A stretch of 20,436 nucleotides of DNA from a virus (Duplodnaviria > Heunggongvirae > Uroviricota > Caudoviricetes), in the IMG/VR virus record IMGVR_UViG_2690316086_000007, positions 1-20,436 of that record. One strand, written 5' to 3'. The notes under the pieces were generated by a model. It ran no database searches. It was not told where the DNA came from and was given only the letters and a program-made list of their open reading frames with translations. This document shows, in pieces, positions 1 to 20,436 of the stretch (position 1 is its first letter; every line of letters begins with the position of its first letter). The position numbers and the translations under genes were made by a program.

Positions 1-73
1 CATCCTGACTTTCCAGAACCATACGAATCGCCCGCTGACGGACTTCGGGGGAAAAACGAGTATTTTTAGTCAT
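1..73 (-). CDS. IS3-family transposase OrfA, N-terminal 24 codons only (partial, runs off window)
   Basis: Minus-strand ATG at 71-73 preceded by GAGG RBS; translation MTKNTRFSPEVRQRAIRMVLESQD. It differs from the right-hand copy at two residues (I/V, D/G). Confidence 0.8.
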   Translation of the reverse strand, partial: MTKNTRFSPEVRQRAIRMVLESQD

Positions 74-127
74 CCTGTTTACCTCTTTCTCAGGGAGTTT
101 AGTCTCCAGGATTTCCGGGGCGGTTCA
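1..127 (-). mobile_element. IS3-family insertion sequence (IS629/IS3411-like), partial: terminal inverted repeat plus 5' end of orfA; element continues beyond window start
   Basis: Reverse complement of 1-127 reads TGAACCGCCCCGGAAATCCTGGAGACTAAACTCCCTGAGAAAGAGGTAAACAGGATG..., which is also found in direct orientation at 20310-20436. The terminus TGAACCGCCCC and the OrfA N-terminus MTKNTRFSPEVRQRA match the IS629-type IS3 family as I recall it. Confidence 0.85.
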
Positions 128-2952: not shown

Positions 2953-3912
2953 ATGAAAATTTGTATCGACGACGGCTCCACCAACATCAAGCTGGCATGG
3001 GCTGAGAACGGCGAACGCCGCAACGCCATCAGCCCGAACAGCTTCAAGTCGGAATGGTCTGCGCCGTTCGGTGGCACGCAGCCCGCGAACTACATGCTTG
3101 ATGGCGTGCGCTATGGTTTTGATCCGGTCAGCGATCGCTTTGTCCAGACGACCGACACGCAATACCAGTACAGCGATGTGAATGTCATTGCCATTCATCA
3201 CGCACTGGTCAAATCAGGCATCACGCCACAGGAGGTGGATGTGGTTGTCACCCTGCCACTGAGCGAGTATTTCGACACAAACGCACAGCCGGATATGGCC
3301 AACATCAGCCGCAAAAAATCGAACGTTATGCGCCCGGTGGAGTACCAGAACGGCGAAGCATTCACTATCCGTAACGTACGGGTTATGCCTGAATCCATTC
3401 CGGCTGGCTTTAAAGCACTGGCTGACATGAGTCCGTTTGAATCCCTGCTGATTGTGGATTTAGGCGGAACCACACTGGATGTGGCAAAGGTTCAGGGGCA
3501 ACTGGCAGGTATCAGCCAGGTGTTTTGCGATCCACACGTAGGCGTTTCCCTGATGGCCGATGCCGTACTGTCGGTGATGGCCACTAACGGTATGCGTACC
3601 AGTCACCACATCGCCAATACCATTATCGAACATCGCCATGATGAAGCCTGGTTGCGCCAGCACATCCACAATGACGCGCATTACGCCAGCCTGATGGCGG
3701 TTATTCGTGAAAAGGAAGAAACACTGAAACAACGCGTGATCCGCGCGCTGGCGGGCTTTTCGGGTTACGGGCGGGTGATGGTTGTCGGTGGCGGGGCGGA
3801 GATTGTGGCACCCGCTATCCGCGAAGCCTGCGGAGTTAATGCGACTTTCATCGCGGACGGGGTGCCACAGTTTGCTCTGGTTAATGGGCTGTACGCAATG
3901 GACAAGGAGTAA
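2953..3912 (+). CDS. parM: ParM/StbA-family actin-like segregation ATPase
   Basis: 319 aa; collinear similarity to plasmid R1 ParM as recalled (IDDGSTNIKL, ISPNSFK, YSDVNV..HHAL, VMPESIPAG, IDLGGTTLD, FSGY, VGGGAEI, LVNG). RBS AAGGA 8 nt upstream of ATG. Confidence 0.85.
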   Translation: MKICIDDGSTNIKLAWAENGERRNAISPNSFKSEWSAPFGGTQPANYMLDGVRYGFDPVSDRFVQTTDTQYQYSDVNVIAIHHALVKSGITPQEVDVVVTLPLSEYFDTNAQPDMANISRKKSNVMRPVEYQNGEAFTIRNVRVMPESIPAGFKALADMSPFESLLIVDLGGTTLDVAKVQGQLAGISQVFCDPHVGVSLMADAVLSVMATNGMRTSHHIANTIIEHRHDEAWLRQHIHNDAHYASLMAVIREKEETLKQRVIRALAGFSGYGRVMVVGGGAEIVAPAIREACGVNATFIADGVPQFALVNGLYAMDKE

Positions 3913-4291: not shown

Positions 4292-4675
4292 ATGAGCGAA
4301 ATCAACTATCAGGCATTACGTGAACGTTATTCACCTGTGCCAGTACCGAAATGCCCTATTTGCGGCGAGGAAATGTCAATTCAGCGAATATCTGGAGCAC
4401 AGGTTGTTTATGCCTGCTCCGGTTATGGTGATGATGGAGATTTCAAAATTGGCCGAACTCTTGCCGACGAACATTATGAAAAATCACGCGTAACAGTGTT
4501 GGATGTCGGGAATCCTGAAGTATTGGCGCTACTTGATTGGCTGGAAACCAAAGACAACCGAATCGCTGAACTGGAAAAAATCGCCACTGACTATGCACTT
4601 AAATTACAGAAAGCACAGGACGCATTAAAGTACGCCGCTTTGCTGCATAGCAGGACAGCGCAGCTACAAGACTAA
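4292..4675 (+). CDS. Hypothetical protein with N-terminal Cys motif (CPICGEE..YACSGYG) and C-terminal predicted coiled coil
   Basis: 127-aa ORF with AAGAGA RBS-like sequence 8-9 nt upstream; lower GC than flanking phage genes. I recognise no homolog. Confidence 0.5.
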   Translation: MSEINYQALRERYSPVPVPKCPICGEEMSIQRISGAQVVYACSGYGDDGDFKIGRTLADEHYEKSRVTVLDVGNPEVLALLDWLETKDNRIAELEKIATDYALKLQKAQDALKYAALLHSRTAQLQD

Positions 4676-4766: not shown

Positions 4767-5297
4767 TTATTCAGCATCGTCTCGTGCAGTCTGTGCATAC
4801 GTCACAACAACGCCCAATGCATTAGTTTTCTTTTCAACATAGATAATATTGTCATATTCATAGTTACCATACGGATAGCAAATAAGAATATTTTTATGCA
4901 GATCGGGATCATCAACAAACGCTCCGGAACAGCTTCTTGAACTACCGGATGTATACTCATACGGTGCAACATATGGTGATGTTACTCCTGGTAAAAAATA
5001 AGTCACCATCATAAGAGGGATAATCAGGAATATCCCTGTAAGAATGCAAGAGCCAGCATAAACCTTCAGGTATTCCGACAGTCCTTTCCAGCCACTTTGC
5101 TTCACTACCCCCCTCTTCACCAGAAACAAGGAGAAGAAAAAGGACATACCCATACTACACAAGATGTAATAATTGGATATACGCGAATTAAGATATGTAA
5201 TCCTGTAGATATCTGCCCTCCACCAGTAAAAGAGGAAAATAATCCCTAGCACTGAAACAGTCATGCAAATCAAATAAGGATATGAATCTTTCTTCAT
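4767..5297 (-). CDS. Hypothetical integral membrane protein (3 predicted TM helices plus ~70-aa C-terminal domain), AT-rich cargo gene
   Basis: 176-aa ORF. Hydrophobic segments YLICMTVSVLGIIFLFYWW, YYILCSMGMSFFFSLFLV and SCILTGIFLIIPLMMVTYFL. Markedly AT-rich, with codon usage unlike the surrounding phage genes. Weak RBS. Confidence 0.5.
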   Translation of the reverse strand: MKKDSYPYLICMTVSVLGIIFLFYWWRADIYRITYLNSRISNYYILCSMGMSFFFSLFLVKRGVVKQSGWKGLSEYLKVYAGSCILTGIFLIIPLMMVTYFLPGVTSPYVAPYEYTSGSSRSCSGAFVDDPDLHKNILICYPYGNYEYDNIIYVEKKTNALGVVVTYAQTARDDAE

Positions 5298-5340
5298 GTC
5301 TTGCGCTCATTAAAATTTCCCTGCTACGAACAAATTTACC

Positions 5341-5826
5341 ATCCGTTTTTTGCGCAGAAAACAGCACGATGCACACTGCACGATAGTGCACAAATTTGCA
5401 CAATTTTTTTGAACGACTTTTTACCCTTCCGGCCCGCATGGCGGCTGGATCCGTCAAGGATCCGTGCGTGCACAAAAAAACGCGTTTTTTCTGCGCGCAG
5501 GTGACGGGGGAACAGCCCGCGTTTCAGGGGGTAAATAGCATTCCCTGAACGATGTCGCAGAGATACAACAGAATGGCTGTATTTCTCACGCTGAGCGTGA
5601 AAAAGACGTGAGGGCTTTTGATTTATGGGGTGAAAGGTAAGGCCGTCAAAATCGCACTGAGACGGCGAGAACATGCAGTCAACGCGGTGGGATTGCGTAA
5701 GAGTCTGACTGTCGATGGTGGCGATAAACTGGAAGGCGTCGTGAAATTATCTGACTGATACAGGAGCTGGAGAGTCGGGGCATAAATTTTTTATGCCCCG
5801 GCGAAGCAGCAGACAAGCGAAGCGCG
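5341..5826. other. Non-coding region between cargo slot and portal gene; expected location of the cos site and packaging signals by P2 synteny (exact cos not identified)
   Basis: No convincing ORF. Dense in direct and inverted repeats (TGCACA array 5364-5403; GGATCCGT x2 at 5447-5465; AAAAAACGCGTTTTTT palindrome 5474-5490; 11-bp-stem hairpin 5776-5800). In P2 the cos lies between old and Q. Confidence 0.4.
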
Positions 5827-6873
5827 TCAGGATGTGGGCTGGGTGTCTAACAGTGCGTAAGGGTTAAAGCGGATCACCTCTTCGCCAAGCCAGTCATTGA
5901 TGTGCTTCATGGCCTCCATGACGGGCATCAGCTCGTTAATTGCGTAAACCCGCGCGGCCTTCTCCACATCACCAAACGCACTTTTTTCGCCCGGCATCGC
6001 CCCCATCAGTTGCGGCGGAACGCGGTGCGCAGCCAGCACATCATCACGGGATGCCGCCTTAACATTCATGAACTCATCCTTTGCGGTGATCTGCTGGAAC
6101 GGCAAAATTTGCACCCCCTCTTTGCCCCCGTTGGGAGCATGGATGAGCACGTTTTTAAACGCACCACCACCACGCGCACCCTGTAACGTTTCTTTCAGGG
6201 AGTCCATGCTTTCGCGGTTTACCTGCGCTGCACCGATGTAGATGATGCACCCGGCGTGGGATCCATTGTCGTAATACAGTTTTCTGAACATGTCCGCCGA
6301 ATGAGACAGGCTGGCCGAGAGTAATGCGCCAAGATATTCCGGCATGCCGTAAATTTCCTGGTTAATGTCCGGATTCATCAGGTGGCACACTTTGCCAGGG
6401 CGAAACTGAAACGCGTCCTTGCCATCCTGCACATACCACCATGATTCAAGATCGCTTCCGCGTCGCATGTATTTCGCCAGTGCGTGCCGTAATTTAAGCG
6501 GTTCGCCGAGCATATTGCTTCGAAGCTCAAGGAATGCGTTACCGAACACAAACCAGTCCAGCGCCAGCGCCGAGAAATCCTGCCGGGAAAGCAGCGGGTG
6601 CGGGATGTAGCAACCGAGTAATACATTGCGCTTAAAGTAAAGCGCAGACTGATGCCAGGACGTTTGCCGGGCAGCTCTTGCCAGACCGTACCAGTCCACC
6701 GGGGTTTCATACCACCGCCCGTTATCAGCACAGTACATATTGTCCAGCAGGTCATGCCCGGTCAGGCGATAAGGACCATCAAATGTGAATGCACTGAGCG
6801 ATGATTCTTTCCTGAGCGCATCAGCGAGATCAATGCGTGAACTCATGCGCACTTTTTTATTTTTTCTGCTCAT
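5827..6873 (-). CDS. Q: Portal protein, P2 gpQ-like
   Basis: 348-aa ORF immediately downstream of and translationally coupled to the terminase gene (minus-strand TGATG overlap at 6871-6875); position and size match P2 Q. Confidence 0.8.
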   Translation of the reverse strand: MSRKNKKVRMSSRIDLADALRKESSLSAFTFDGPYRLTGHDLLDNMYCADNGRWYETPVDWYGLARAARQTSWHQSALYFKRNVLLGCYIPHPLLSRQDFSALALDWFVFGNAFLELRSNMLGEPLKLRHALAKYMRRGSDLESWWYVQDGKDAFQFRPGKVCHLMNPDINQEIYGMPEYLGALLSASLSHSADMFRKLYYDNGSHAGCIIYIGAAQVNRESMDSLKETLQGARGGGAFKNVLIHAPNGGKEGVQILPFQQITAKDEFMNVKAASRDDVLAAHRVPPQLMGAMPGEKSAFGDVEKAARVYAINELMPVMEAMKHINDWLGEEVIRFNPYALLDTQPTS

Positions 6874-8624
6874 CAGAACTCCATAACCGTGAAACGCTCG
6901 TTTTCTCCTTCGCCGCCAATCGGTTCGTTAATGACAGCAAGCATGGTTGCCCACGCAAGGTCGCCGTGGCTGATCCCCCTCGCGCGATCCGTTTCGTAAG
7001 TGATAAAGCCGCCCGGTGTTTTCACCTTACGCACGGCGTTAAAGGCCGCGACCAGCTCGCGTTCGGCGCGATCGTATTCCCACCGCCCGGCACGCATTAT
7101 TTGCAGCATTTTCAGTACCAGCGACCGTTTTGATGACAGCGTGAAGGTGTACGGAATAGCAGCAGGGAAAAACCGTTTCACTATCTGATAAACAGCCTCC
7201 CCGTTCCCGCCCGTCACATCAATGCCGATGTGTTCCACGTTGTAGCGATACGTGAACTCTTCAATGACTCTGGCCTGTTCTTCAAACTCCAGCCCCTGAA
7301 CGCGTCGCGTCTCCACCGTTCGAAAACGGCCACCAGGAACAGCCGGAGGAACCACCACGGACACAGCGCCGCTGTCGCCGTTGCCACTGCTGCCGTTTGC
7401 GTCATACCCAATCCATACCGGACGATTCCCCATCGGTCGGGGAGCAAAAGGTTTCCAGTCTTTCCAGTCGTCGTATCCGTCAACACCGCAGCCAATCAGG
7501 ATATTCAGGTTAAATGCCGATTCCCCTTCGCGAACAAACTCACACATATAGAGATTGAGGAACTCGTCTTCGGTGTTTTCATCACGGATTTCGTCAATAT
7601 CGGTGTGTTTCCAGCCGTGATTAACCACATCTTCCAGCGTGACAATTTGTCGCCACGTCCGGTCAGGGCAGATAAGCCCGTTATGCAGCGTTTTCCAGTC
7701 CACAGAAAAACGCTGGCGTTTATGCGAGGCCTTTTTCTCGTTCCAGCGGTCGCCGTTCCAGTAGGCGTATGCCTCGTGCGTTTCGGTGGATGGCGTGGAG
7801 AAGTAGGTGCGCCGCAGTCCGCTGAGGGTTGCCATAGCGCCAGCTACCTTGCGCAGTTCAGCAAAGCGACTGACCCAGAAAAATTCATCAAAATAAAAAT
7901 TGCCCGTATAGGACTGTGCCGACGCAGCAGAAGTGCCGAGAAAATGCAGCTCTGCGCCGTTGGAGAGGATGATTTTATCGCCCCCTTTCAGCTCCACATC
8001 AACTTCAGCCGCGGCCTTCTGAATAATGCTTTTAAACTGGAACGCCTGACGACGCGACGCAGACAAAAAAATCTGGTTACGCTGGTAAGGTTGCGCCACA
8101 TCGTCACGCAGCGCCATCAGCAGAGCTTCCTGTGCAAAATACCAGGTCGCCCCAATCTGTCGGGATTTCAGGATCATCCTGTTACGTATCCCGGCTTCCC
8201 TGCAAAGGGTCAGGGAATCAAACCAGCCCCGCTGATGCCACTCCAGCCTGCTGATGATTTTTTCCCGCAGTGCGGCAATCTGTTCCGGCGTGAAATGATT
8301 TTTGAGTTTTTTCGCCCGGCCTTTCTTTCCTGTGACCGTCGCATCCGGCTGGCCATCATGCAGTTTTTTAAGCTGCCGGGTCAGCAGGTCTATTTCCTTA
8401 AAGTCACCGCCTGTTTTATTCTGTTTTTCAGTAAGCTGGATGAGGCGCGCATCGATGGACTGCGTGACACGCTGCACGGGTGGCGTTTCATCCCACTGGT
8501 CGCGTTTTTTCCACGCATAAATCGTGTTCGGGTTTATTCCCATCAGACGTGATATTTCTGCGGGCGGATAACCCTGCCAGTAAAGTTGCCGCGCACGCTG
8601 GCGCACAAAAGCGTCCTGAATCAT
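6873..8624 (-). CDS. P: Terminase large (ATPase) subunit, P2 gpP-like
   Basis: 583 aa; N-terminal HTH-like segment (PPAEISRLMGINPNTIYAWKK), Walker-A-like ILKSRQIGAT, size and position as in P2 P. Confidence 0.88.
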   Translation of the reverse strand: MIQDAFVRQRARQLYWQGYPPAEISRLMGINPNTIYAWKKRDQWDETPPVQRVTQSIDARLIQLTEKQNKTGGDFKEIDLLTRQLKKLHDGQPDATVTGKKGRAKKLKNHFTPEQIAALREKIISRLEWHQRGWFDSLTLCREAGIRNRMILKSRQIGATWYFAQEALLMALRDDVAQPYQRNQIFLSASRRQAFQFKSIIQKAAAEVDVELKGGDKIILSNGAELHFLGTSAASAQSYTGNFYFDEFFWVSRFAELRKVAGAMATLSGLRRTYFSTPSTETHEAYAYWNGDRWNEKKASHKRQRFSVDWKTLHNGLICPDRTWRQIVTLEDVVNHGWKHTDIDEIRDENTEDEFLNLYMCEFVREGESAFNLNILIGCGVDGYDDWKDWKPFAPRPMGNRPVWIGYDANGSSGNGDSGAVSVVVPPAVPGGRFRTVETRRVQGLEFEEQARVIEEFTYRYNVEHIGIDVTGGNGEAVYQIVKRFFPAAIPYTFTLSSKRSLVLKMLQIMRAGRWEYDRAERELVAAFNAVRKVKTPGGFITYETDRARGISHGDLAWATMLAVINEPIGGEGENERFTVMEF

Positions 8625-10736: not shown

Positions 10737-11537
10737 ATGATTACTCCTGCACAGCAACACTGGCAGAACGTGATGGCACAGCGCGCAGGCCGGGCGAATG
10801 AAGGCGTGGACCACGCCGCGCGTACCGCGCATGAAGAGGTGCTGTATCGTCTGCGTCTGGCACAGGCCCGGCTTAAGGGCGTACAGGCCAGAAGCGCGAA
10901 AGCCGCCATCAAAAAAGAGTTGTTGCCGGATTTTTCCGGCTGGATTGAGGGAACGCTGGAGGCTGACGGCGGGCAGCAGGATGAAGTGATTGCCACGCTG
11001 ATGGTGTGGGCGATTGACTGCGGCGATCTTCCGCTGGCGTTGCGTATTGGTGCGTATGTGGTCCGTCATAACCTCATTATGCCGGATAACTTTGGCCGTA
11101 CTGCTGCCACAGTGCTGACCGAAGAAATCTGCAACCCGGTACTGACGCAGGCCGGGGCGGATGCCGACGCGGATTTGTCCGCCTTTATCGAACCACTGGA
11201 CACCCTCCGGAAGATTGTCACCGACCAGGACATGCCGGACGAAGTACGCGCCAAATTATGCAAGGCGTGCGCCTTTGCCCGTCGTGGTCTGACCGATGCA
11301 GACAACATGGCCTTATCACTGAAGCTGCTGCGCGAAGCGATGCACCTGAACCCGAACGCAGGTGTGAAACGCGAGATTGCAACCCTTTCCCGCGCCCTGA
11401 AAAAAGCCGATTCCGCAGCCGAACCAGAAGACGCCAGCGCACAGCAGGCGCAGGACGAAAGCAGCAAAAGTAAAAAGACAACGCGGAAGCCTGCAACACG
11501 AAAAACCACCGCGACGCAGAAGGCGAAGCGCGGTTAA
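10737..11537 (+). CDS. M: Terminase small (endonuclease) subunit, P2 gpM-like
   Basis: 266 aa, GGAGAG RBS, position after N as in P2; basic Lys/Thr/Arg-rich C-terminal tail. Confidence 0.8.
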   Translation: MITPAQQHWQNVMAQRAGRANEGVDHAARTAHEEVLYRLRLAQARLKGVQARSAKAAIKKELLPDFSGWIEGTLEADGGQQDEVIATLMVWAIDCGDLPLALRIGAYVVRHNLIMPDNFGRTAATVLTEEICNPVLTQAGADADADLSAFIEPLDTLRKIVTDQDMPDEVRAKLCKACAFARRGLTDADNMALSLKLLREAMHLNPNAGVKREIATLSRALKKADSAAEPEDASAQQAQDESSKSKKTTRKPATRKTTATQKAKRG

Positions 11538-19654: not shown

Positions 19655-20181
19655 AATTTAGTGATGAATGTTGAATCATCAGGAATATCATGCAATACCA
19701 ATGCATGAGCACCTATTGTGACATTGTTTCCTATACGCACTTTGCCACCAAGAATGGTGGCATTACAACCAATGGTCACATTATGTCCTATAACAATATC
19801 CATATCATTAAAATCACCACGTAGCCCAATAGTTACCCCTGGTTTTATTGAACAATTTTCACCGATGGTTACTTTGTGACCGATAACAACACTATTGAGA
19901 TAAGAAATATCAAAGCCTTTCCCTATATTTACAGTTAAAGGGACTGTTACATTATATTTATCAAGAATGAAACGTTCTATTTTCCCCGCAATCTTCCGAC
20001 AGTATCCGCCTTTATCAAAAAGGTATTTGGCTATGCGCCACCAAAATAAATAACGAACTCTTCTATGTTTTATTGCGCGAACAATTGCCTTTCGCCAGGA
20101 GAAAGGACGCTCGCTACCGATTACTTCATAGTGAATACAGTCTTTAAGTTCATTAATATTCATATCTCTATTATTTAGCAT
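19618..20181 (-). CDS. Hexapeptide-repeat (left-handed beta-helix) acetyltransferase, WcaF/WbbJ/CysE-like; AT-rich moron
   Basis: 187 aa; repeated [LIV]G..X hexads ([56 protein letters not shown]) and N-terminal FWWR segment as in small sugar O-acetyltransferases. About 35% GC against ~55% for the phage genes. 3' end overlaps G convergently by 37 bp. Confidence 0.75.
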
Positions 20182-20309: not shown

Positions 20310-20436
20310 TGAACCGCCCCGGAAATCCTGGAGACTAAACTCCCTGAGAAAGAGGTAAACAGGATGACTAAAAATACTCGTTTTTCCCCCGAGGTCCGTC
20401 AACGGGCAGTTCGTATGGTTCTGGAAAGTCAGGGCG
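20310..20436 (+). mobile_element. IS3-family insertion sequence (IS629/IS3411-like), partial: terminal inverted repeat plus 5' end of orfA; element continues beyond window end
   Basis: TGAACCGCCCCGGAAATCCTGGAGACTAAACTCCCTGAGAAAGAGGTAAACAGGATGACTAAAAATACTCG...; inverted copy of 1-127, with 6 mismatches clustered in the last ~45 bp. Confidence 0.85.
20364..20436 (+). CDS. IS3-family transposase OrfA, N-terminal 24 codons only (partial, runs off window)
   Basis: ATG 20364 with GAGG RBS; MTKNTRFSPEVRQRAVRMVLESQG, which matches the canonical IS629-type OrfA N-terminus as recalled. Confidence 0.8.
   Translation, partial: MTKNTRFSPEVRQRAVRMVLESQG

Follow-up and report, generated by a model that had tools for sequence, protein, structure and literature searches.

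The prophage in the stretch of DNA analyzed here (20,436 nucleotides, referred to as the window) raises the question of whether it retains a working cos site and, if so, where its DNA is cut. The original prediction expected cos by synteny between the cargo genes and the portal gene Q, noted that the exact P2 cohesive end is lacking there, and offered two alternatives, namely, a diverged cos or compromised packaging. The P2 cohesive end had been given correctly, since the P2 record annotates cosL at positions 1 to 19 as GGCGAGGCGGGGAAAGCAC, and we found no match to it with up to 3 mismatches on either strand of the window. The nearest resemblance put forward, GGTGACGGGGGAACAGCCC at 5500 to 5518, is indeed identical to the P2 cos at 13 of 19 positions. 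Four sites in the window reach at least 13/19, compared with 5.65 ± 2.3 in composition-preserving shuffles; this match alone is thus not above chance, and the weight of 5500 to 5518 therefore comes from positional homology and conservation and not from its P2 score. Our reading is that this prophage, a P88-like (Xuanwuvirus) member of the P2 family, very probably has a functional-type cos site at positions 5377 to 5521. The location expected from synteny was borne out by both synteny and alignment, and of the two alternatives the diverged cos stood, with 5500 to 5518 as the positional homolog of the P2, 186, and SEN4/5 cohesive ends, whereas the compromised packaging did not.

Judged by its genes, the prophage is a P88-like Xuanwuvirus and has no close relative in P2. 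Membership in this group, marked by near-identity to phage P88 in structural and packaging genes and in the cos region, is borne out by the portal and the cos region. The portal gene Q (5827 to 6873, minus strand; Pfam Phage_portal) encodes a protein that is 100% identical to that of P88; its identity is 45% with P2 Q and 49.5% with 186 W. The large terminase subunit gpP (6873 to 8624, minus strand; Pfam Terminase_5, Terminase_6N, and Terminase_6C; PF06056) has an N-terminal gpP-type HTH, an ATPase, and a nuclease domain, shares 46% identity with P2 gpP and 78% with that of phiT5282H, and is the enzyme expected to nick cos. The small subunit gpM (10737 to 11537, plus strand; Pfam Phage_term_smal, PF05944), 40% identical to P2 gpM and 58% to that of phiT5282H, is the expected cos-recognition subunit. 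The portal gene and both terminase genes are full length. Homology of the cargo stops at 5376, the cos block spans 5377 to 5521, and the Q stop codon lies at 5827. Directly downstream of this stop codon, a perfect hairpin with 11-nt arms (CGGGGCATAAA/TTTATGCCCCG, 5776 to 5800) is likely the terminator of the P-Q operon and the counterpart of P2 tQ, which is annotated in the P2 record at the equivalent place. The cos region is 93.5% identical to that of P88 overall, and the 35-mer at 5488 to 5522 is without any difference; positions 5376 to 5830 are 93 to 98% identical to P88-like phages. When 5300 to 5830 was used as the query, at least 80% of it was covered in 1,099 of 5,426 complete Escherichia coli genomes, i.e., in about 1 in 5.

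The cos block is made up of several elements, here described from left to right. (i) The distal element (5377 to 5410) comprises TGCAC boxes starting at 5377, 5387, and 5398, with a phasing of 10 to 11 bp, and then a T7 run. Among 78 P88-like copies, homology sets in abruptly at 5377, the block 5377 to 5410 is identical in Enterobacter phage phiT5282H, and TGCAC is about 23-fold enriched in this element with respect to the whole window; we propose that the three boxes are terminase-binding repeats. (ii) The lineage-specific spacer (5430 to 5465) contains a GC-rich imperfect dyad, CCGGCCCGCATGGCGGCTGG (5430 to 5449), and the direct repeat GGATCCGT, present twice (5447 to 5454 and 5458 to 5465) as had been noted. 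Although the spacer sequence is not the same from genus to genus, all GGTGAC-type lineages have a GC-rich dyad and a GATC located 41 nt left of the nick, and the second GATC of the spacer (5459 to 5462) is conserved. (iii) The proximal TGCAC box with its A7 tract (5469 to 5480) lies 31 nt to the left of the nick, and its conservation extends to 35 loci of other species. (iv) A variable center (5481 to 5485) and a T-run extend to 5492 and form, together with the A-tract, the palindrome AAAAAACG/CGTTTTTT (5475 to 5490) pointed out earlier. A functional role for the palindromes found no support: the center of the perfect palindrome AAAAAACGCGTTTTTT reads CGCGT, CGCGC, CGCAT, AGGCC, or CACGC among close relatives, and the palindrome is missing in other genera. 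A further symmetric element, CTGCGCGCAG, does occur at 5491 to 5500. (v) The left flank GCGCGCA (5493 to 5499, plus strand) abuts the proposed top-strand nick at 5499|5500 and is invariant or nearly so in the 78 close copies and the 35 cross-species loci of both cos types; it corresponds to GCGGGCG| in P2, GTGGGCA| in 186, and GCGTGCG| in SEN5. (vi) The proposed cohesive end (5' overhang) at 5500 to 5518 on the plus strand is followed by a right flank (5519 to 5523, plus strand) in which a variable base (G, A, or C at position +20) precedes CGC in most lineages; the CG at 5520 to 5521 was invariant in one alignment. The left boundary of the putative overhang, at 5500, is well supported, whereas the right boundary is uncertain and may lie anywhere from 5516 to 5519, corresponding to an overhang of 17 to 20 nt.

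Positional homology with cos sites whose ends are known or reported carries much of this assignment. The 19-nt 5' overhangs are GGCGAGGCGGGGAAAGCAC in P2 and P4 and GGCGTGGCGGGGAAAGCAT in 186, and a 55-bp conserved core was described by Ziermann and Calendar in 1990, as cited in PMC5694545 and PMC3931495. In our alignment of P2 and 186, the stretch from the TGCAT at -29 through the end of TGCGCGC measures 55 bp and presumably is this published core. Relative to the nick, TGCAY boxes are found at -123/-111/-101/-29 in P2, at -124/-111/-101/-29 in 186, and at -111/-101/-29 in SEN5; relative to the proposed nick, they are found at -123/-113/-103/-31 in the window and in phiT5282H. The proximal TGCAY-A-tract is thus at -29 in P2, 186, and SEN5 and at -31 in the window, phiT5282H, and ST16-OXA48phi5.4. 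The window site shares its genomic place with the cos of P2, P4, and 186: it is flanked by the variable accessory genes (cargo) of the right end on one side and by the 3' end of Q on the other, with the order and orientation seen in the P2 and 186 maps. Also common to these sites are phased TGCAY boxes at about 100 to 125 nt to the left of the nick, a TGCAY-A-tract at about 30 nt, and the gpM plus gpP type of terminase. The window site also shares a GC-rich overhang of about 19 nt that has a GG(C/T)G start, GG(Y)GA in this group, and a G-run and that aligns with the known ends via conserved flanks. Compared with the P2 cos, 6 of the 19 overhang positions are different, including T for C at position 3, the left spacer is longer by 2 nt, and the overhang is apparently shorter by 2 nt; the boxes of the window site read TGCAC instead of the TGCAT of P2 and 186, and its right flank reads N-CG(C) instead of TGCGCGC. 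By sequence, it also falls outside the packaging-specificity group of P2, P4, and 186 (same cos, interchangeable helper), which is defined by an overhang that is GGCG(A/T)GGCGGGGAAAGCA(C/T) or nearly so and by the right flank TGCGCGC: there is no match with up to 3 mismatches, the best being 13/19, and the right flank of the window is GCGTTT. The second candidate, GGCGAGAAC, is present at 5664, but its position is not homologous to known ends and nothing supports it as a functional element.

The closest relatives with reported ends that we found are the Salmonella phages SEN4 and SEN5 (Senquatrovirus), whose cos is reported as GGCGAGGCGGGGGAACGAG (PMC5261728). The SEN5 record begins at its cos, and SEN5 TGCACAAAAAAGCGGGGTTTCTGCGTGCG|GGCGAGGCGGGGGAACGAG aligns with TGCACAAAAAAACGCGTTTTTTCTGCGCGCA|GGTGACGGGGGAACAG in the window. 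The left flanks, TGCACAAAAAA...CTGCG(T/C)GC(G/A), are directly alignable, and CGGGGGAAC is found in both overhangs; differences concern the start (GGCGAGG versus GGTGA-C in the window), the right end, and the right flank, and the portal, gpP, and gpM are 53%, 57%, and 48% identical, respectively. Klebsiella relatives bridge both forms, with GCGCGCA|GGCGAGGCGGGGGAGCAAG in 3LV2017 and GCGCGCA|GGTGACGGGGGGCAAGCCC in ST16-OXA48phi5.4. An alignment of CTGCGCGCAGGTGACGG in the window with the P2 right flank TGCGCGCTGACGG, which would move cos to the left of 5491, was rejected because SEN5 and these Klebsiella intermediates show that GCGCGCA is the left flank. The comparison with P2, 186, and related cos regions that had been suggested thus places the top-strand nick at 5499|5500, at the start of the first candidate.

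We also considered that cos lies in this region but is nicked elsewhere, either 2 nt to the left, which would yield the overhang CAGGTGACGGGGGAACAGC (5498 to 5516), or near 5422 to 5449; we regard this as improbable. A nick at 5497|5498 would, in an ungapped alignment, preserve the box positions of P2, 186, and SEN5 (-111/-101/-29), but GCGCGCA|GG(C/T)GA aligns at 11 of 12 positions between the cos types, compared with 6 of 14 for the ungapped solution. A nick near 5422 to 5449 is suggested by the record of P88_4B11, which starts at the window equivalent of 5422 and contains GCGTGGCGG, which resembles part of the 186 cos. However, nucleotide 1 of that record was "chosen relative to reference genomes" by its authors and was rejected as a measured end, and positions 5423 to 5445 are polymorphic in close relatives and not conserved in other genera. 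For the site as we place it, the exact nick positions, the overhang length, and the assignment of proteins to boxes are inferred.

The conservation of the 19-mer agrees with this placement. In 450 intergenic columns of 78 P88-like sequences, the longest strictly invariant run corresponds exactly to 5500 to 5518, although a run of 19 or more invariant columns reaches only p = 0.06 by permutation, and 54 of 56 metagenome copies picked by the right flank alone had an unchanged 19-mer, the other two carrying single substitutions. In phiT5282H, homology is confined to 5377 to 5521, where the 19-mer is identical and the surrounding block is 76% identical. The 19-mer recurs with unrelated flanks in at least 10 other enterobacterial genera. 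Among unbiased GTDB species genomes found via the portal, 23 loci carry GGTGACGGGGG-NNN-AGCCC, in genera that include Salmonella, Citrobacter, Edwardsiella, Serratia, Kosakonia, Pantoea, and Erwinia; in 22 of these, positions 1 to 11 and 15 to 19 are unchanged and variation is limited to overhang positions 12 to 14. We refer to the unannotated sites with an identical or near-identical 19-mer in phiT5282H (Novemvirus), ST16-OXA48phi5.4 (Reipivirus), and many enterobacterial prophages as type A cos. They share with the window the GCGCGCA flank, the TGCAC boxes at -123/-113/-103/-31, and a conserved GATC at -41, whereas their spacers and all sequence beyond the right end of the 19-mer bear no relation to those of the window. 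In the literature searched, such sites are neither described nor tested, a full-text search for GGTGACGGGGG returned no phage paper, the P88 paper never mentions cos, and none of the records examined has a cos annotation in this region. Two apparently virion-derived assemblies, Chuche (PP925824) and P88_4B11 (LR595891), carry deletions of 7 and 5 nt, respectively, within the 19-mer or at its right edge; should these be real, and not artifacts of assembly at the ends of the genome, the 19-mer would be able to do without its right part.

These data bear directly on the possibility that cos has decayed and that the prophage is unable to cut and package its DNA. The exact P2 cos is absent, IS629 in gene A has damaged the prophage at another place, and the near-identical RM8352 copy has annotated frameshifts in gene A and in a tail gene, all of which could be taken to favor decay. 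On the other hand, the 35-mer at 5488 to 5522 is identical in P88, a viable phage that is inducible and lyses its host, and in the five deposited phage records vB_EcoM-569R5, vB_EcoM-705R2, Shae_phiSM, PhiR44_2, and 520873; the surrounding 531 nt are 93 to 98% identical in about 1,100 E. coli genomes; the 19-mer is invariant in 78 of 78 close copies and conserved across genera; and the portal and both terminase genes are intact. Decay is therefore very improbable and already largely refuted by these observations, and compromised packaging is not supported. The cos differs from that of P2 because the whole lineage differs, and such divergence is in keeping with the identity of just 40 to 46% between the prophage terminase and portal and those of P2, the terminase proteins themselves spanning this range, as expected of a co-diverged and not a decayed allele. 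The site is ordinary and is no sign of broken packaging. The real threat to viability is another one. The window begins with the end of an IS629-like element (1 to 127, minus strand), whose insertion point lies about 32 codons into replication gene A, and closes with an IS629 end at 20310 to 20436 (plus strand), which is inverted relative to the left copy and matches the IS629 of pO157 Sakai with 100% identity. The window aligns with the RM8352 prophage only over 128 to 20309, and IS629 splits gene A at 127/128. The prophage is thus probably defective, the cause being the IS629 insertion in gene A and not cos.

We consider it highly unlikely that the conserved block has a role other than packaging, such as a regulatory region or small gene for the cargo or the Q operon, with DNA packaged in another manner, e.g., by headful. 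A hypothetical ORF is annotated across the block in several phage records, and hairpins lie nearby, one with 14-nt arms at 5579 to 5607 and the terminator-like one at 5776 to 5800. However, a search for a promoter-like site found none, an Rfam scan of 5150 to 5900 gave no match, and the overlapping ORF (5336 to 5674) has no Pfam match and its reading frame is not conserved, since a 1-nt indel at 5624/5625 between the window and 76 of 78 relatives shifts its frame. Taken together, these results indicate that the region is not coding and holds no known RNA. In addition, the order, spacing, and sequence of the block are common to the experimentally defined cos sites of P2 and 186, and the terminase is of the P2 gpM/gpP type, a family of which, to our knowledge, all characterized members use cos.

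In the mechanism that we propose, the site would read, from left to right, as three helically phased TGCAC boxes (5377 to 5402), a GC-rich spacer, TGCAC-A7 (5469 to 5480), GCGCGCA (5493 to 5499), and GGTGACGGGGGAACAGCCC (5500 to 5518). The phage's own terminase, gpM (10737 to 11537) and gpP (6873 to 8624), would bind the TGCAC boxes and nick the top strand between 5499 and 5500 and the bottom strand 17 to 20 nt farther to the right, which would leave 5' protruding ends that are rich in GC, like those of P2 and 186, and the genome would be packaged through portal Q. Among approximately 250 viral and metagenome contigs retrieved by portal, by the exact 19-mer, or by the right-flank pattern in metagenomes, most of which are prophage predictions or permuted assemblies, none has a physical genome end at the site. 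A break of homology at 5498 in one contig was rejected as a terminus, as it reflects the end of an insertion sequence, which we take to be IS1, at the edge of a draft contig. Likewise, a 19-mer located 5 nt from the start of another locus marks a mere storage-chunk boundary inside a 34-kb contig. The proposed arrangement is similar to lambda cos (cosQ-cosN-cosB) in that a nicking site gives rise to 5' cohesive ends and repeated terminase-binding elements lie on one side, but lambda cos has no sequence homology to it, its overhang measures 12 nt, and the small terminase of lambda is unrelated. The packaging substrate is said to be concatemers in lambda and monomeric circles in P2.

The biological surprise is small, given that variation of P2-family cohesive ends between lineages, including GGTGA starts in phiRSA1, Smp131, and AP3, was already known. 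The cos of Ralstonia phage phiRSA1 is GGTGAGGCGGGGTCCAAC, which its source paper reports as a determined end, and that predicted for Burkholderia phage AP3 is GGTGGGGCGGGGTCACAACT. Like the proposed end, both start with GGTG and not GGCG, and phiRSA1 shows that T at position 3 occurs; in this comparison, which covers the overhangs, their hosts are distant and the middle and right parts are unlike the window. What is gained is a defined packaging site for a very common type of E. coli prophage, a correct nucleotide 1 for annotators of P88-like and related phages, a probe of whether a prophage remains packageable, and a starting point for cos-plasmid and phagemid tools with P88-type helpers. In addition, cos is removed as a reason to call the prophage dead. 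In one portal clade, the GGTGAC type was found at 23 loci and the GGCGAGG type at 12. We raise, as a possibility that we consider rather doubtful, that a GGTGAC-type cos with its co-diverged terminase may form a separate packaging-specificity class in the P2 family, with alternation between it and the GGCGAGG type in enterobacterial phages that are close in other respects. P4-like satellites carry the P2 cos. We looked for such satellites with the present cos: of 255 copies of the 19-mer, 244 have a portal gene at a distance of 199 to 936 nt, 10 are cut off by locus ends, and the remaining one belongs to a rearranged prophage remnant and not to a satellite. These phages may thus have no satellites of their own or may have satellites that are still unrecognized. 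If the separate class is real, a switch of class could insulate these phages from cross-packaging with P2/186-type phages and from piracy by P4-like satellites.

The stretch from 5377 to 5521 is very probably an ordinary, intact and lineage-specific cos site (the packaging site with cohesive ends) of a P88-like phage. Positions 5376 to 5830 are 93 to 98% identical to P88-like phages (genus Xuanwuvirus, Peduoviridae), and 1,099 of 5,426 complete E. coli genomes have a place that covers 80% or more of the query 5300 to 5830, with 100% identity in E. coli O121 RM8352. As anticipated from synteny, the cos region lies between the cargo, that is, the variable accessory genes, and the portal gene Q. 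Replication gene A (218 to 2851), ParM (2953 to 3912), a plasmid-stability protein (to 4228), and an Ead/Ea22-like protein (4292 to 4675), all on the plus strand, and an unknown cargo gene on the minus strand (4767 to 5297) are located to its left, where relatives diverge completely from ~5377 outwards. Portal Q (5827 to 6873) and large terminase P (6873 to 8624) follow on the minus strand, and small terminase M (10737 to 11537, plus strand) lies further right. The portal shares 45% identity with P2 Q and 49.5% with 186 W, and gpP and gpM are 46% and 40% identical to their P2 counterparts; with portal and terminases so far from P2, there was no reason to expect an exact P2 cos in the window.

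The P2 cohesive end had been given correctly, since the P2 reference record annotates cosL (1 to 19) as GGCGAGGCGGGGAAAGCAC, and this sequence is indeed absent from both strands of the window, even when 3 mismatches are allowed. Two degenerate candidates had been proposed instead, and both are present as placed: GGTGACGGGGGAACAGCCC at 5500 to 5518 and GGCGAGAAC at 5664. Although real, the 13/19 match of the first to P2 cos does not exceed chance (4 sites of at least 13/19 in the window versus 5.65 ± 2.3 in shuffled sequences), so that the claim for 5500 to 5518 must rest on other evidence. The second lacks support; its position is not homologous, and it has only GGCGAG in common with P2. It is enclosed by a GTG-started, 42-codon ORF (5630 to 5758), annotated as a hypothetical protein in phage P88_4B11 and preceded by a hairpin at 5579 to 5607 with 14-nt arms (GTATTTCTCACGCT and AGCGTGAAAAAGAC).

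The position of the nick was derived from relatives with known ends. For P2 and 186, the records themselves annotate the ends, and the closest relatives with reported ends are the Salmonella phages SEN4/SEN5 (portal identity, 53%), whose sticky end is reported as GGCGAGGCGGGGGAACGAG (PMC5261728). This sequence opens the SEN5 record, and the joined ends of that record read ...TGCACATTTGCACAAAAAAGCGGGGTTTCTGCGTGCG/GGCGAGGCGGGGGAACGAG/CGCGCGC; the window counterpart is ...GTGCGTGCACAAAAAAACGCGTTTTTTCTGCGCGCA/GGTGACGGGGGAACAGCCC/GCG. The left flanks are directly alignable, and the overhangs have CGGGGGAAC in common. Several closer relatives bridge the SEN5 and window forms, namely, Klebsiella phage 3LV2017 and a Klebsiella phage-plasmid (GCGCGCA/GGCGAGGCGGGGGAGCAAG/CGCGCGC), Klebsiella phage ST16-OXA48phi5.4 (GCGCGCA/GGTGACGGGGGGCAAGCCC), and Enterobacter phage phiT5282H (GTGCGCA, then the exact window 19-mer). 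Flank alignment and bridging relatives place the predicted top-strand nick between 5499 and 5500, and a nick at this position would make the first candidate, 5500 to 5518, the cohesive-end sequence. The alignment with the P2, 186, and SEN4/SEN5 ends thus bears out the suggestion of a diverged cos in the form of a lineage-specific site.

Conservation was analyzed at several levels. (i) In the window and 77 P88-like loci fetched via the portal protein, homology sets in abruptly at 5377. Of the 450 intergenic columns, a third vary, and the longest strictly invariant run is exactly 5500 to 5518; the permutation P value for so long a run anywhere is 0.06, which makes the run supportive and not decisive. 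(ii) The 19-mer is unchanged in 54 of 56 metagenome copies picked by right-flank pattern only, the other two carrying single substitutions. (iii) In a BLAST comparison with phiT5282H, only 5377 to 5521 matches (76% identity), and the 19-mer and the distal boxes described below are identical. (iv) An unbiased portal search of GTDB species genomes returned 23 loci of the GGTGAC type and 12 of the GGCGAGG type, two cos alleles named by their overhang start. Hosts of the former were Salmonella, Citrobacter, Edwardsiella, Serratia, Symbiopectobacterium, Kluyvera, Kosakonia, Enterobacter, Pantoea, Mixta, Izhakiella, Erwinia, and Klebsiella. Overhang positions 1 to 11 and 15 to 19 are unchanged in 22 of the 23 GGTGAC loci, all variation in those 22 falling at positions 12 to 14, and the sequence right of cos is unrelated between lineages. 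(v) Among exact 19-mer copies in all fetched DNA, 244 of 255 lie 199 to 936 nt from a portal gene. The cos block is not coding: the window differs from 76 of 78 relatives by a 1-nt indel at 5624/5625 that puts the overlapping ORF 5336 to 5674 into another frame; this ORF has no Pfam match, and the block has neither an Rfam match nor a promoter-like site. The two alleles were found interleaved among the GTDB loci L274 to L323, with portals 63 to 78% identical to that of the window, and sometimes in one genome (Kosakonia oryziphila and Klebsiella michiganensis).

Each phage was then anchored on its known or proposed nick, and TGCA(C/T) motifs were listed relative to it. These boxes are located at -123, -111, -101, and -29 in P2; at -124, -111, -101, and -29 in 186; at -111, -101, -37, and -29 in SEN5; and at -123, -113, -103, and -31 in both the window (starts at 5377, 5387, 5398, and 5469) and phiT5282H. 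TGCAC is ~23-fold enriched in the cos region relative to the whole window. The layout is conserved in all five phages: two or three boxes spaced one helical turn apart come first, then a ~70-nt spacer with a GC-rich dyad in it, and last, ~30 nt from the nick, a proximal box with an A-tract behind it. By analogy with other cos phages, the boxes are likely terminase-binding sites. Lineages of the GGTGAC type have 2 extra nt between proximal box and nick and 2 fewer at the overhang start (GGTGA-CGGGGG versus GGCGAGGCGGGGG), leaving the box-to-G-run distance unchanged. The symmetric elements pointed out in the original prediction are all present and fared differently. The palindrome at 5475 to 5490 (AAAAAACG and CGTTTTTT) is perfect in the window (AAAAAACGCGTTTTTT) but not conserved: its center is polymorphic among close relatives (CGCGT, CGCGC, CGCAT, AGGCC, and others), the equivalent in other genera is no palindrome, and only the A-tract after TGCAC is kept. 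The conserved left flank GCGCGCA lies within CTGCGCGCAG (5491 to 5500), together with the initial G of the overhang. As to the two copies of GGATCCGT (5447 and 5458), only the GATC of the second recurs; this Dam methylation site (5459 to 5462), located 41 nt to the left of the proposed nick, is shared by every GGTGAC-type cos region irrespective of genus and is absent from the GGCGAGG type.

Sequence alone yields several candidate positions for the right-hand (bottom-strand) nick. A constant overhang length gives 19 nt (5500 to 5518), in agreement with the invariant run and a GCCC block kept across genera; a constant distance from the boxes gives 17 nt, and 18 nt would result from right-flank likeness to CGCGCGC. 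Both nicks come after GC(A/G) in P2, 186, and SEN5, and this rule, applied to most relatives, would predict 20 nt. Deletions inside or at the right edge of the 19-mer are seen in two records that look like assemblies of virion DNA: Chuche, an environmental isolate (PP925824, ~19668 to 19700), reads GGTGACGG and, after a 7-nt deletion, GCCCGCG, and P88_4B11, from a culture or virome collection (NC_049391, ~79 to 100), reads GGTGACGGGGGGACAG and, after a 5-nt deletion, GTTTCAGG. Neither was seen in any of ~250 prophage or metagenome copies. They are probably joining artifacts at physical genome ends, which would lend indirect support to the cos location; if real, the right part of the 19-mer would tolerate loss.

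Compromised packaging had been offered as the alternative to a diverged cos, and we found no reason for it in the cos sequence. The 35-mer 5488 to 5522 is identical in P88, a phage that is induced and lyses hosts (PMC5285337), and in five other deposited phage records (vB_EcoM-569R5, vB_EcoM-705R2, Shae_phiSM, PhiR44_2, and 520873); the portal and its P88 counterpart share 100% identity, and portal and terminases are intact, both terminase subunits giving full-length domain matches. The prophage is probably defective for a reason other than cos. The window matches the RM8352 prophage only from 128 to 20309 (99.93% identity), and both ends (1 to 127 and 20310 to 20436) are IS629-type termini in inverted orientation, the right one 100% identical to IS629 of pO157 Sakai and the left one a diverged copy. 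The latter interrupts gene A ~32 codons from its start, so that the prophage is probably replication defective. The 20.2-kb segment between the IS629 copies could be inverted. The RM8352 prophage (NZ_CP028110, 4479502 to 4520032), nearly identical to the window, lies next to yecA; RefSeq marks four of its genes as damaged, with frameshifts in gene A, a tail gene, and the cargo gene and only a partial Ead/Ea22-like gene, and this copy may also be defective, unless these marks reflect sequencing errors.

Further observations concern neighboring DNA and other loci. In the interval 4767 to 5434, the DNA that lies upstream of the cargo gene, beginning within the first few codons of that gene, is ~76% identical to a b-region segment of phage 434 (OL657226, 27195 to 27321) that overlaps a putative membrane-protein gene, which may be the counterpart of cargo gene 4767 to 5297. 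The TGCAC-box part of the cos region falls within the match; phage 434 has no stretch equivalent to ~5437 to 5525, including the nick site, and resumes at GGGGTAAATAGCAT, which suggests that a P88-like and a lambdoid phage exchanged cargo and that the foreign cos core was lost. In another P88-like prophage, IMGVR_UViG_2681813261_000011 (L022/L153), homology breaks off at window-equivalent 5498, and what we take to be an IS1 terminus fills the rest of the contig, which points to IS1 insertion right at the cos nick site. The distance from 19-mer to portal is ~312 nt in most copies and ~936 nt in ~5% (L075, L098, L107, L137, and others), L075 having a 584-nt insert near window 5754 to 5764; the long spacing agrees with the insertion hotspot reported between cos and Q in P2-like phages. 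A contig assigned to "Vagococcus sp. WN89Y," a Gram-positive genus (NZ_JBQPOM010000071.1), has a portal 100% identical to that of the window and the same cos region, most likely because that assembly is contaminated with E. coli DNA.

Cohesive ends of the P2 family are already known to vary: GGCGTGGCGGGGAAAGCAT in 186 and PSP3, GGCGAGGCGGGGGAACGAG in SEN4/5, GGCGTGGCGGGGAGACGAG in Smp131, GGTGAGGCGGGGTCCAAC in phiRSA1, and, as predicted, GGTGGGGCGGGGTCACAACT in AP3; for this family, the literature also cites a conserved core of 55 bp. The window site shows every P2-family feature testable by sequence and departs only in its lack of identity with the P2/186/P4 specificity group. No description of a P88-type site was found in the literature searched, the P88 paper does not mention cos, and no phage paper in a full-text search contains GGTGACGGGGG. 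It seems rather unlikely that the GGTGAC and GGCGAGG alleles are separate packaging-specificity classes; if they were, such classes could affect cross-packaging and satellite piracy.
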